A DNA stretch of 64,000 bases from a virus. Of this stretch, positions 40,690-40,919 are shown in pieces (the first letter of the stretch is position 1; every line of letters starts with the position of its first letter). The translations under genes and the position numbers were made by a program. Location: the IMG/VR virus record IMGVR_UViG_3300006931_000029, positions 93,124 through 157,123 of that record; one strand, written 5' to 3'. Under the pieces are notes generated by a model. The model saw nothing but the letters and a program-made list of their open reading frames with translations. It did not search any database and was not told where the DNA came from.

Positions 40690-40785
40690 GGCAGAGTCGC
40701 CGAACGGTGAGCCGCAAGGCTCTTCAGGCCCGGGTGTCCGGAAGGAGACTCGTCTATGTAGGTTCGAATCCTACCTCTGCCTCCA
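40690..40785 (+). ncRNA. tRNA-like element (96 nt) with canonical acceptor and T-arm and encoded CCA but no canonical anticodon arm
   Basis: acceptor GGCAGAG/CTCTGCC perfect 7 bp, T-arm GTAGG-TTCGAAT-CCTAC, discriminator T, CCA; exhaustive hand search found no 5-bp/7-nt anticodon stem-loop; CCGG-GTGT-CCGG hairpin internal. Confidence 0.35.
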
Positions 40786-40787
40786 AT

Positions 40788-40919
40788 TTCCCTGTAGCTC
40801 AGAAGCTTTGCGAAGTCGCCCGCAGATCACGGGATGACGACGCAAATACCGTCGGCAACGACGAGGTAGAGCGGCCGGTTCTAACCGGAGTGTCGCTGGT
40901 TCAAATCCAGTCAGGGACT
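40788..40919 (+). ncRNA. degenerate tRNA-like element (about 132 nt) with about 62-nt insertion in D-loop
   Basis: TAGCTCAG...GGTAGAGC D-arm identical in stems to tRNA at 39458; anticodon-like hairpin CCGG-TTCTAA-CCGG (6-nt loop containing CTA); T-arm GCTGG-TTCAAAT-CCAGT; acceptor 6/7 bp. Confidence 0.25.

Follow-up and report, generated by a model that had tools for sequence, protein, structure and literature searches.

A predicted tRNA-shaped RNA without an anticodon between amber-gated genes in a clade of uncultured phages

We analysed a 64,000-nt stretch of DNA (hereafter, the window) from an uncultured soil phage. A canonical suppressor tRNA gene with a CUA anticodon (39458–39533, plus strand) was identified by ARAGORN and scores 65.8 bits against the Rfam tRNA model. 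It is followed by a gene of a 74-aa protein family (40417–40680, plus strand) with an in-frame TAG at 40432–40434, and further downstream by a gene for a PTH2-type peptidyl-tRNA hydrolase (40928–41311, plus strand; Pfam PF01981, E = 2.1e-17) with an in-frame TAG at 40943–40945. Two tRNA-like elements, designated element 1 (40690–40785) and element 2 (40788–40919), lie between the stop codon of the first gene (40678–40680) and the ATG of the second (40928), in the gap between coding regions to which a sequence-only reading of the locus had assigned them. The gene order is suppressor tRNA, amber-gated 74-aa gene, element 1 and amber-gated PTH2, with element 2 in a slot between element 1 and PTH2 that accepts ORFs and other inserts in other strains. 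In both gene families the amber codon falls one to six codons past the start. The leader TAG of the 74-aa gene is kept in 79 of 80 related loci, and that of PTH2 is kept both among relatives and in a distant clade. Element 1 is much rarer than the 74-aa gene, and PTH2 occurs without element 1 in other clades. Together, the suppressor tRNA and the small amber-gated genes make up a striking module with a far wider distribution than that of element 1, and the presence of this module makes the locus a good entry point into how phages stage a genetic-code switch. Shine-Dalgarno motifs precede 14% of the long ORFs in the window, compared with a background of 13.9%. Since the window as a whole shows no use of this signal, its absence before PTH2 is no special sign of a leaderless mRNA, and the proposal that processing of element 1 yields a leaderless PTH2 message, which had been argued from that absence, was dropped.

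Element 1 is a 96-nt gene on the plus strand, and 11 distinct variants of it were found in related uncultured phage contigs. The carriers belong to one clade with genomes of about 200–230 kb. Each variant begins 8–11 nt past the stop codon of the 74-aa gene, and in L087 and L089 the 3′ end lies 5–6 nt before the PTH2 ATG. Existing annotations label the element tRNA-Glu or “tRNA-???”, and in some contigs a gene-caller ORF runs through it. The tRNA-like core described in the sequence-only reading was found in full. A 7-bp acceptor stem joins GGCAGAG (40690–40696) to CTCTGCC (40775–40781), followed by a discriminator U (40782) and an encoded CCA (40783–40785), and the T arm (40758–40774) reads GUAGG-UUCGAAU-CCUAC, in agreement with the Rfam tRNA consensus. 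U73 and CCA are present in 11/11 variants. Six of the acceptor pairs are invariant, while pair 6–67 is A-U, U-A, U·G or, in one variant, U·U. The T stem does not vary and the T loop is either UUCGAAU or UUCGAGU. U8, A14 and the equivalent of G18-G19 are retained together with this canonical T loop. The acceptor stem, T arm, elbow nucleotides and CCA are the best-conserved parts of the element, and the sequence has features of a candidate RNase P substrate (U at −1 in nine variants of 11, G+1 and a 3′ UCCA). This fixity stands in contrast to the suppressor tRNA of the same phages, whose lineages differ at up to six of seven acceptor pairs and carry G, A or U as discriminator; in element 1, only one of seven pairs varies. 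The variants share a mean column identity of 89%, and because of this closeness the invariance of the stems and tetraloops could partly reflect a short divergence within a small, young family.

Both remaining arms depart from the tRNA pattern. The D arm (40699–40729, plus strand) is expanded, with a GCC(GAA)/(UUC)A-GGC stem, a CGGU segment holding a conserved GG, and, directly behind the GG in the variable pocket of the D loop, an inner hairpin, GAGCC-GCAA-GGCUC (40709–40722). The position of the anticodon arm (40731–40752, plus strand) is taken by a helix of 8–9 bp capped by an invariant GGAA tetraloop (40740–40743). Across the alignment, 97.1% of cells in paired positions are paired, compared with 31–48% in slid controls, and 35 cells carry changes on both sides of a pair, against 13.3 ± 2.7 in shuffled alignments (a count reached by 0 of 500 shuffles). 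The same cloverleaf is the minimum-energy fold of each variant taken alone. Compensatory changes occur in three of the five pairs of the inner D-arm hairpin, which is paired in 100% of cases, and five of the nine pairs in the GGAA-capped arm have changed on both sides. None of the 11 variants departs from the GGAA loop or from the C-G pair that closes it. Some variants hold a 2×2 internal loop within this helix; the helix is continuous, at 8–9 bp with a 4-nt loop, in L087, L089, L091, L093, L094 and L095. The extension helices covary freely, and no variation occurs in either tetraloop, in the D stem or in the T stem. Because the outer D stem never varies, it shows no covariation and is backed by folding energy only. 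A different D stem, in which GCC and GGC close at position 31, was tried and rejected; it shows no covariation and fails in relatives. The earlier description of element 1 as degenerate or decayed must be abandoned, since the whole fold is kept across the 11 variants with compensatory changes.

Comparison of these sequences indicates that element 1 is a tRNA-shaped RNA without an anticodon. It has the 7-bp acceptor stem and the 5-bp T stem with a consensus T loop that are expected of a decoding tRNA, but the 5-bp anticodon stem, 7-nt loop, U33 and three-base anticodon are missing. As the anticodon arm ends in a closed tetraloop, no codon can be read. The sequence-only reading had likewise reported no anticodon stem-loop. 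It had offered instead a CCGG-GTGT-CCGG hairpin, which can be drawn in the window but does not represent the fold that is conserved: the hairpin lacks covariation, three of six variants cannot form one of its four pairs, and its bases lie in the covarying 9-bp helix capped by GGAA. We consider it very unlikely that element 1 truly decodes, whether as tRNA-Glu(UUC) or as a tRNA with an unconventional anticodon arm, and that element 2 is an intron-containing tRNA made functional by removal of its 62 nt. ARAGORN calls element 1 “tRNA-Glu(ttc)”, and the element passes the Rfam tRNA threshold at 31.6 bits against a gathering score of 29. The Rfam match, however, skips the whole anticodon arm as a local end, and the ARAGORN call is an artefact with a 2-bp D stem and an anticodon stem of 3 bp that is not conserved. 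A G30→A change disrupts that 3-bp stem in L082 and L089, the bases of the stem covary within the GCAA hairpin instead, and the calls for relatives are inconsistent, being Glu(ttc), ‘???(tc)’ or nothing. On the side of decoding, the loop of element 2 includes both UCU and CUA, and in L077 the suppressor position is held by a tRNA whose 6/8-nt loop contains CUA. Against it, element 2 has its insert in the D loop, no Rfam intron or ribozyme family matches, and 62 nt is too short for a group I intron. Splicing in the D loop is not known from bacterial hosts.

The region also contains an ORF of 81 aa (40677–40922) that crosses both elements, with an ATG overlapping the upstream stop codon, and gene callers have run a DUF6165 ORF through element 1 in L091, L093 and L094. 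We find it scarcely credible that this ORF is real and the likeness to tRNA incidental. The variants range from 94 to 97 nt and differ by indels whose lengths are not divisible by three, and no frame stays open throughout the set (frame 3, that of the ORF, has a stop in L087), from which it follows that element 1 is not coding. Its substitutions, moreover, come as compensatory pairs.

Other identities were considered for element 1. A tmRNA was rejected because pair 3–70 is C3-G70 rather than G3·U70 and no Rfam tmRNA model matches; ARAGORN -m, which covers permuted forms, found no tmRNA in 40500–41100. Permuted tmRNA genes do exist in related phage loci. A tRNA-Sec or allo-tRNA, with arms of 8/5, 8/4 or 9/3, was set aside on account of the 7/5 arms, the 5-nt variable loop and the lack of an anticodon loop. 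A search of 39300–41100 against all Rfam families at E ≤ 10 gave only two relevant matches, both from the tRNA model; HDV-like families gave none over the same interval, and tRNA-mimic-type families had no match at E ≤ 10. Neither Rfam nor ARAGORN (-m and -i) gave evidence of a permuted tRNA, an intron or a ribozyme. Element 1 is absent from 50,697 GenBank phage records. A covariance model of the element recovered only ordinary tRNAs, both in about 80 loci with the 74-aa gene and in other clades, where three PTH2 loci were searched, and every match that ARAGORN had missed turned out to have an anticodon loop. The sole match to a gapped pattern in viral contigs was an unrelated tRNA-Ser. In comparisons with tRNA isotypes, the acceptor-stem end is similar to that of tRNA-Cys and the D arm to those of class II tRNAs; the gene that matches best, labelled ‘tRNA-Lys(ctt)’ by ARAGORN, is 88 nt long and non-standard, and no isotype was assigned. 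Similarity to other tRNAs is confined to the T arm, which does not bear out the suggestion that element 1 is a decayed paralog of the suppressor.

Element 2 (40788–40919, plus strand) is a different thing. This gene of tRNA-Arg type is confined to one strain; its D loop is interrupted, its anticodon loop has 6 nt, it carries a U1·C72 mismatch and it encodes no CCA. The motifs given for it in the sequence-only reading were recovered (TAGCTCAG...GGTAGAGC, CCGG-TTCTAA-CCGG and GCTGG-TTCAAAT-CCAGT), and the D-loop insertion of about 62 nt was placed at 40803–40864 by alignment to tRNA-Arg genes. Six pairs of the acceptor stem form in addition to the mismatch. The insert comprises a long bipartite hairpin with a CAGAUCA loop and a second hairpin, CGUCG-GCAA-CGACG (40850–40863). 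Folded alone it reaches −26.8 kcal/mol (z = −3.99), and none of 200 shuffles folds as well; a cloverleaf of element 2 that encloses the insert is isoenergetic with the minimum-energy fold (−52.6 versus −53.0). With the insert removed, element 2 is 84% identical to a bacterial tRNA-Arg(CCU) and 77% identical to the tRNA-Arg of Enterobacter phage CobraSix, which has the anticodon loop CTTCTAA (UCU), as against 50% identity to the suppressor tRNA of the window. These values lend no support, for element 2 as well, to the idea of a decayed suppressor paralog. Matches to the insert-free sequence were found in 989 phage records, and among the best 25 of the 989, those that overlap an annotated tRNA carry the label tRNA-Arg or tRNA-Met/Ile.

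Element 2 is most likely non-decoding. Its anticodon-like hairpin (40874–40889, plus strand), (G)CCGG-UUCUAA-CCGG(A), has a 4-bp stem and a 6-nt loop, one nucleotide short of the tRNA-Arg(UCU) loop CUUCUAA, and in the predicted fold it becomes 5 bp with a UCUA loop. There is no working UCU or CCU anticodon loop, positions 27–43 form a G·A, and the insert is followed by GGUA with no A20. The Rfam tRNA model does not find element 2 at E ≤ 10, and ARAGORN finds nothing at default settings and makes two mutually inconsistent calls under relaxed thresholds. An intron-containing or permuted tRNA, which had also been suggested, finds no support: Rfam matches no intron or ribozyme here, ARAGORN -m is empty, and its intron mode yields nothing but an implausible call, one overlapping element 1. 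The insert itself occupies the D loop and falls far below the length of a group I intron. No homologue of it was found, and a BLAST search of phages with the insert as query gave no match. A genome scan with element 2 returned one unrelated coding match and one ordinary tRNA-Arg(CCU) and no homologue, BLAST against all collected loci found the same strain only, and viral contigs scanned with exact patterns of its anticodon arm and of its T arm and acceptor contained none. Phage tRNAs with large D-loop inserts were sought with the pattern GTAGCTCAG-N45-75-GGTAGAGC-N25-32-GGTTC; at least 119 stretches matched, and the loci that were checked proved to be tandem tRNAs or a partial duplication.

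A direct repeat, AATTTCC (plus strand), has its left copy at 40785–40791 and its right copy at 40921–40927, and it bounds a 136-nt insertion that contains element 2. A sister strain reads ...CTGCCTCCATTTCCATGAAAG at this site with nothing in between, and its 105-aa PTH2 product is identical. Element 2 occurs only in the strain of the window (the window, L084, L085, L086 and L100) and is absent from L087, L088, L101 and every outgroup. On this comparison of sequences, element 2 arose separately and recently, as a 136-nt insertion into the variable slot behind element 1. The two elements are of different kinds; what the sequence-only reading had observed is confirmed in part, and its interpretation is supported in part. 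Known from one sequence, element 2 may be either a second mimic or a decaying passenger. That element 2, and possibly element 1 too, are decaying tRNA pseudogenes without function is in our view improbable as a whole. The restriction of element 2 to one strain, its U1·C72 and G·A 27–43 oppositions, 6-nt loop, missing CCA and split D loop, its failure to match the Rfam tRNA model, and the unrelated cargo carried by its slot in other strains all fit decay. The acceptor, T and anticodon-like stems are, however, intact and the insert is unusually stable (at the z-score given above) and compatible with a cloverleaf, although none of this is proof of function, and for element 1 a pseudogene is excluded by the compensatory changes across its 11 variants.

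Our preferred reading, to which we assign a probability of about 0.5, is that element 1 is a functional, tRNA-derived, clade-specific non-decoding RNA that acts in trans as a tRNA mimic, and that element 2 is a separate and recent insertion. Element 1 would be transcribed together with both flanking amber-gated genes, cut out by RNase P at G1 and trimmed at its 3′ end to the CCA, and would accumulate as a stable RNA of ~96 nt that is unable to decode. It may then engage in trans a protein that recognises the half of a tRNA made up of acceptor stem and T arm, whether as a ligand, as a decoy or as a substrate at its acceptor end; candidate partners are the adjacent PTH2, a synthetase guided by acceptor-stem identity, or a defence nuclease of the host that targets tRNA. 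Excision would also part the two cistrons.

That last effect might be all there is. Processing by RNase P and RNase Z as tRNA-like punctuation, one of the roles raised in the sequence-only reading, is viable for element 1 as a role in cis, and it is possible, if less than probable, that the element acts only in this way, with RNase P and 3′-end enzymes setting or protecting the 3′ end of the 74-aa-gene mRNA and the 5′ end of the PTH2 mRNA, and with no role for the excised RNA. The distance of 8–11 nt from the upstream stop in all variants and the close approach to the PTH2 ATG in L087 and L089 agree with this, as does the strong conservation of the parts recognised by RNase P (acceptor, T arm, elbow and CCA), and a well-folded tRNA body is also what a processing site or a stabiliser of transcript ends would require. 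RNase P, however, needs no anticodon arm, whereas that of element 1 is kept by compensatory changes with its GGAA invariant. A cut site, moreover, requires shape rather than sequence, yet the acceptor sequence is frozen where that of a real tRNA in the same phages varies; punctuation alone leaves the fixed acceptor, D and T stems unexplained. Inserts are tolerated between element 1 and PTH2, so an exact spacing is not required, and the missing Shine-Dalgarno motif of PTH2 lends no particular weight to a role in cis where such motifs are unused window-wide.

A more specific form of the trans-acting mimic, which we consider doubtful, is that element 1 is a dedicated phage tRNA decoy or adaptor, which either traps a tRNA-targeting defence enzyme of the host or is charged through acceptor-stem identity as a non-ribosomal substrate of PTH2. 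It would be a tRNA that lacks an anticodon and whose acceptor end is frozen (G1-C72, G2-C71, C3-G70, U73 and CCA). As a decoy, its closed tetraloop would leave the defence enzyme no loop to cut. Many bacterial defence systems target tRNA anticodon loops for cleavage (PMC13434031), and for that reason a tRNA body without the loop readily suggests itself as a candidate countermeasure, one open to direct testing. If either version holds, element 1 would be part of the conserved module of suppressor tRNA(CUA) and in-frame-amber genes.

Known tRNA mimics comprise tmRNA, the ends of viral genomes and a few cellular RNAs. Our literature search returned no free-standing phage gene for a complete cloverleaf in which a capped helix, kept by selection, replaces the anticodon loop. 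With the canonical tRNA (RF00005), element 1 shares the 7/5 acceptor/T geometry, U8, A14, the D-loop GG, the UUCGAAU T loop, the single nucleotide between the D and anticodon stems, the 5-nt variable loop, the discriminator and CCA; it differs in its GGAA-capped helix of 8–9 bp in place of a 7-nt loop and in the 14-nt GCAA hairpin in its D loop, and element 2 differs in its 62-nt D-loop insert and 6-nt loop. The tRNA cluster of phage T4 includes two stable RNAs, species 1 and 2 (rnaC/rnaD), that are co-transcribed and processed with the tRNAs and whose function is unexplained. Element 1 is a complete cloverleaf with capped arms that lies between protein genes and not in a tRNA array. Element 2 resembles phage tRNA-Arg genes over its full length once the insert is removed, and departs from them in the 62-nt D-loop expansion, an anticodon loop shorter by one nucleotide, the unconserved A20 position and the absence of CCA. 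Theta ribozymes, which are minimal HDV-like ribozymes located beside phage suppressor tRNAs, abut the 3′ ends of CCA-less tRNAs in gut phages (PMC10879173); like the locus described here, they are small structured RNAs tied to tRNAs in amber-recoding phages (PMC10879173), whereas the CCA of element 1 is encoded and no HDV-like Rfam family matches. The tRNA-like domain of tmRNA is, like element 1, an acceptor/T-arm mimic with CCA and no anticodon, but element 1 lacks G3·U70, a tag frame and pseudoknots and retains complete D-like and anticodon-like arms. Viral 3′ tRNA-like structures, mascRNA and bacterial YrlA copy the L shape of tRNA to engage tRNA enzymes without decoding, as we propose for element 1. 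Neither a pseudoknotted genome end nor a Y-RNA module, element 1 differs from these: the gene is free-standing, its 7-bp acceptor stem is a true one, and its CCA is encoded.

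Element 1, the first of two adjacent tRNA-like elements, is a conserved RNA gene that is shaped like a tRNA, shows covariation and has no anticodon. It holds a constant position within a cluster of translation-related genes, all on the + strand. The region lies some 1.8 kb downstream of a terminase large-subunit gene (only 26-29% identity to that of any cultured phage). The cluster comprises a canonical suppressor tRNA(CUA) (39458-39533; 65.8 bits with the Rfam tRNA model), three small ORFs, a 74-aa-family gene (ATG 40417, in-frame TAG 40432, stop codon 40678-40680), element 1 (40690-40785), element 2 (40788-40919) and a PTH2-type peptidyl-tRNA hydrolase gene (ATG 40928, in-frame TAG 40943, end 41311; Pfam PF01981, E = 2e-17). 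Contigs near-identical to the window's phage reach 199-229 kb.

Relatives of element 1 were retrieved via flanking proteins and DNA patterns, giving 11 distinct variants (the window and related phage contig loci L087/L101, L089, L092, L091, L093, L094, L095, L082, L102 and L098), all 11 of which start 8-11 nt past the stop codon of the 74-aa gene. Covariation was scored on a model-guided alignment of these variants. The proposed structure pairs 97.1% of alignment cells and carries two-sided changes in 35 cells, against 13.3 ± 2.7 in column shuffles (0/500 matching the observed value); as a control, sliding partners by 1-3 columns lowered pairing to 31-48%. The minimum-energy fold of each variant, folded singly, is the same cloverleaf.

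Numbered so that the window coordinate equals 40689 + position, element 1 consists of an acceptor stem (1-7/86-92), U8 (position 8), an outer D stem (10-12, or 10-15, with 34-40), a CGGU holding the conserved GG, an inner hairpin capped by GCAA (20-24/29-33), a single linker nucleotide after the D stem, a GGAA-capped helix in place of the anticodon arm (42-50/55-63), a 5-nt variable loop, a T arm (69-85) and a 3' end of U93 plus CCA. The sequence-only reading had found no anticodon stem-loop, and this holds: a helix of 8-9 bp with a 4-nt loop, unbroken in six variants, occupies the arm and makes anticodon presentation impossible. Element 1 is spaced like a class I tRNA (1 nt between D and anticodon stems, 5-nt variable loop) and carries U8, A14, GG and a UUCGAAU T loop, so an L-shape with an intact elbow is plausible. 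An ATG TAG GTT at the invariant variable-loop/T-stem junction (ATGTAGG, window 40755-40761) matches the start-amber-GT pattern of gene leaders, probably by coincidence; its mini-frame ends at a TGA overlapping the PTH2 ATG in L087, is in frame with PTH2 in L089 and runs on into element 2 in the window.

All sequence features listed by the earlier reading for the two elements are present; its CCGG-GTGT-CCGG hairpin in element 1 is not the conserved fold, showing no covariation and one pair that fails in three of the six variants first compared. Element 1 exceeds the threshold of the Rfam tRNA model (31.6 bits, threshold 29) only with the entire anticodon arm skipped as a local end. ARAGORN reports a tRNA-Glu(ttc), for which it pairs 2 bp in the D stem and 3 bp in the anticodon stem. 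That label was rejected, as a C23-G30 to U-A change in L082 and L089 breaks ARAGORN's anticodon stem, whose bases instead covary with the opposite strand of the GCAA hairpin; relatives were called Glu(ttc), '???(tc)' or nothing. Protein coding through element 1 is ruled out, since variant lengths are 94-97 nt and no open frame is conserved. Automatic gene calls extend ORFs straight across it, namely a DUF6165 ORF (L091 2445-2969, L093 2034-2558, L094 543-1067) and a spurious 81-aa ORF in the window (40677-40922), so that the annotation hides the RNA gene at these loci.

As far as found, element 1 is restricted to the clade of the window's phage, with sources in one IMG/VR contig, five JGI metagenome contigs and, via flanking proteins, several Logan, ENA and JGI contigs. 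It is absent from 50,697 GenBank phage records, where matches span the T arm only. In about 80 loci with the 74-aa gene and in PTH2 loci of other clades, a covariance model of element 1 recovered nothing but ordinary tRNAs; every tRNA-like match missed by ARAGORN has an anticodon loop. No isotype ancestry is assignable. G1-C72, G2-C71, C3-G70 and U73 of element 1 agree with the tRNA-Cys acceptor end.

Within element 1, both tetraloops, the D stem, the T stem and 6 of 7 acceptor pairs are invariant, while the two extension helices vary freely in sequence with pairing kept; the family is a young one, with 89% mean column identity, which tempers the reading of invariance as constraint. The suppressor tRNA of the same genomes serves as an internal control. 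Its acceptor stem is GCTTCGA, GCCTCAG, GGGTTCA, GGGTGTA or GGGTACA with discriminator G, A or U, whereas across the same divergence element 1 retains GGCAG(A/T)G and U73. The main rival is that element 1 acts only in cis as 'punctuation', a mere cut site. We favour instead a trans-acting RNA whose acceptor/T-arm half would be read sequence-specifically, mainly because the acceptor end is frozen while that of the suppressor varies. Such a trans-acting RNA would be co-transcribed with the neighbouring genes, excised by RNase P (U at -1 in 9/11 variants, G+1 and UCCA are consistent with this), trimmed to CCA at its 3' end and built up as a stable RNA that mimics tRNA. It may have as its partner a host defence nuclease of the kind that cleaves anticodon loops of tRNAs (reviewed in PMC13434031), the adjacent PTH2, or a synthetase using acceptor-stem identity. 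Separately, the very different suppressor acceptor stems and discriminators among close relatives (window, L082, L089, L091, L092, L095, L098) suggest that the amino acid inserted at UAG differs between phage lineages.

Element 2 occurs in the window strain only (window, L084, L085, L086 and L100, all identical copies) and is absent from all outgroups. In L087, L088 and L101, whose 105-aa PTH2 product is identical to the window's, the junction reads ...CTGCCTCCA-TTTCC-ATGAAAG with no sequence in between, and in the window a direct repeat AATTTCC (40785-40791, 40921-40927) brackets a 136-nt segment. Element 2 is thus an insertion of its own and a recent one. The same slot is empty in L087 and L089, and holds a small ORF in L082, a remnant of it in L098, a DUF6165 ORF in L091, L093 and L094, and a long hairpin (some 80 nt) in L092 (2879-2965) and L095 (2828-2915). 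Compensatory changes separate the outer stems of the hairpin in these two relatives, GCAAGGTGCGG...CCGCACCTTGC and GCAAGACGCGG...CCGCGTCTTGC, and the box CTCCGTTGAAG is common to both; it may be another structured RNA.

Rfam gave no match to element 2 even at E ≤ 10, and ARAGORN missed it at ordinary settings and made two mutually inconsistent calls at relaxed ones. Without its 62-nt insert, which lies between G15 and G18, element 2 aligns at full length to genes annotated as tRNAs, which hundreds of phage records contain. A decayed paralog of the suppressor had been among its suggested identities, but identity is only 50% to the window's suppressor against 84% to a bacterial tRNA-Arg(CCU) and 77% to tRNA-Arg of Enterobacter phage CobraSix, which identifies it by sequence as a tRNA-Arg-type gene and not as a suppressor paralog. 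The CobraSix anticodon loop is CTTCTAA (UCU), and the loop UUCUAA of element 2 is best read as CUUCUAA less one base. Folded alone, the insert gives two hairpins, one long and bipartite, the other CGUCG-GCAA-CGACG (-26.8 kcal/mol, z = -3.99), and enclosing it in a cloverleaf costs no stability relative to the unconstrained fold (-52.6 vs -53.0). In these predicted folds the anticodon-like hairpin has 5 bp and a 4-nt loop. Element 2 may thus also be a non-decoding tRNA-like RNA, or it may be decaying; it is a single sequence with several defects, and no homologue was found.

Matches to the 74-aa family, whose core FHFNKxHL...WSTKETPDNPxTKGSLKFK has 18 invariant columns, occur in 240 IMG/VR stretches. 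An in-frame TAG lies 1-6 codons past the ATG in 79 of 80 retained loci (L002-L081), no alternative start codon precedes the conserved core in those 79, and most have a tRNA(CUA) upstream; L042, the sole locus without TAG, has no tRNA(CUA) within the 6 kb examined. PTH2 is amber-gated too, as ATG-4 codons-TAG in the window (40928-41311) and as ATG ACA TAG in a clade of only 47% identity (L226 2475-2860); this clade lacks element 1, but its Shine-Dalgarno sequence is normal and a tRNA(CUA) lies nearby. Across the whole window, Shine-Dalgarno motifs precede 7 of 50 long ORFs against a 13.9% background, which is no enrichment; translation initiation in the phage and its host probably proceeds without such pairing. 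Phage arrays around the 74-aa gene (L003, L025, L027, L032, L039, L060, L077, L226) hold many non-canonical tRNAs, including long-variable-arm tRNAs for Gln, Cys, Met and Ile (80-91 nt), an Arg(UCG) tRNA that combines a long variable arm with a reduced D arm (L226 3282-3365) and, at the suppressor position, a tRNA whose 6/8-nt loop includes CUA (L077 2714-2790). Genes marked by ARAGORN as permuted tmRNA (tmRNA*; tags such as ANDSSFALAA) adjoin the suppressor tRNA and 74-aa gene in L016, L017, L053, L062, L066 and L069.

Theta ribozymes are tRNA-associated RNAs of amber-recoding phages (PMC10879173), with no match at the window locus. Element 1 lacks the anticodon loop that defines a decoding tRNA. 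By Rfam and ARAGORN it belongs to none of the families of the tmRNA tRNA-like domain, viral tRNA-like structures, mascRNA or YrlA, but like them it would be a tRNA mimic.
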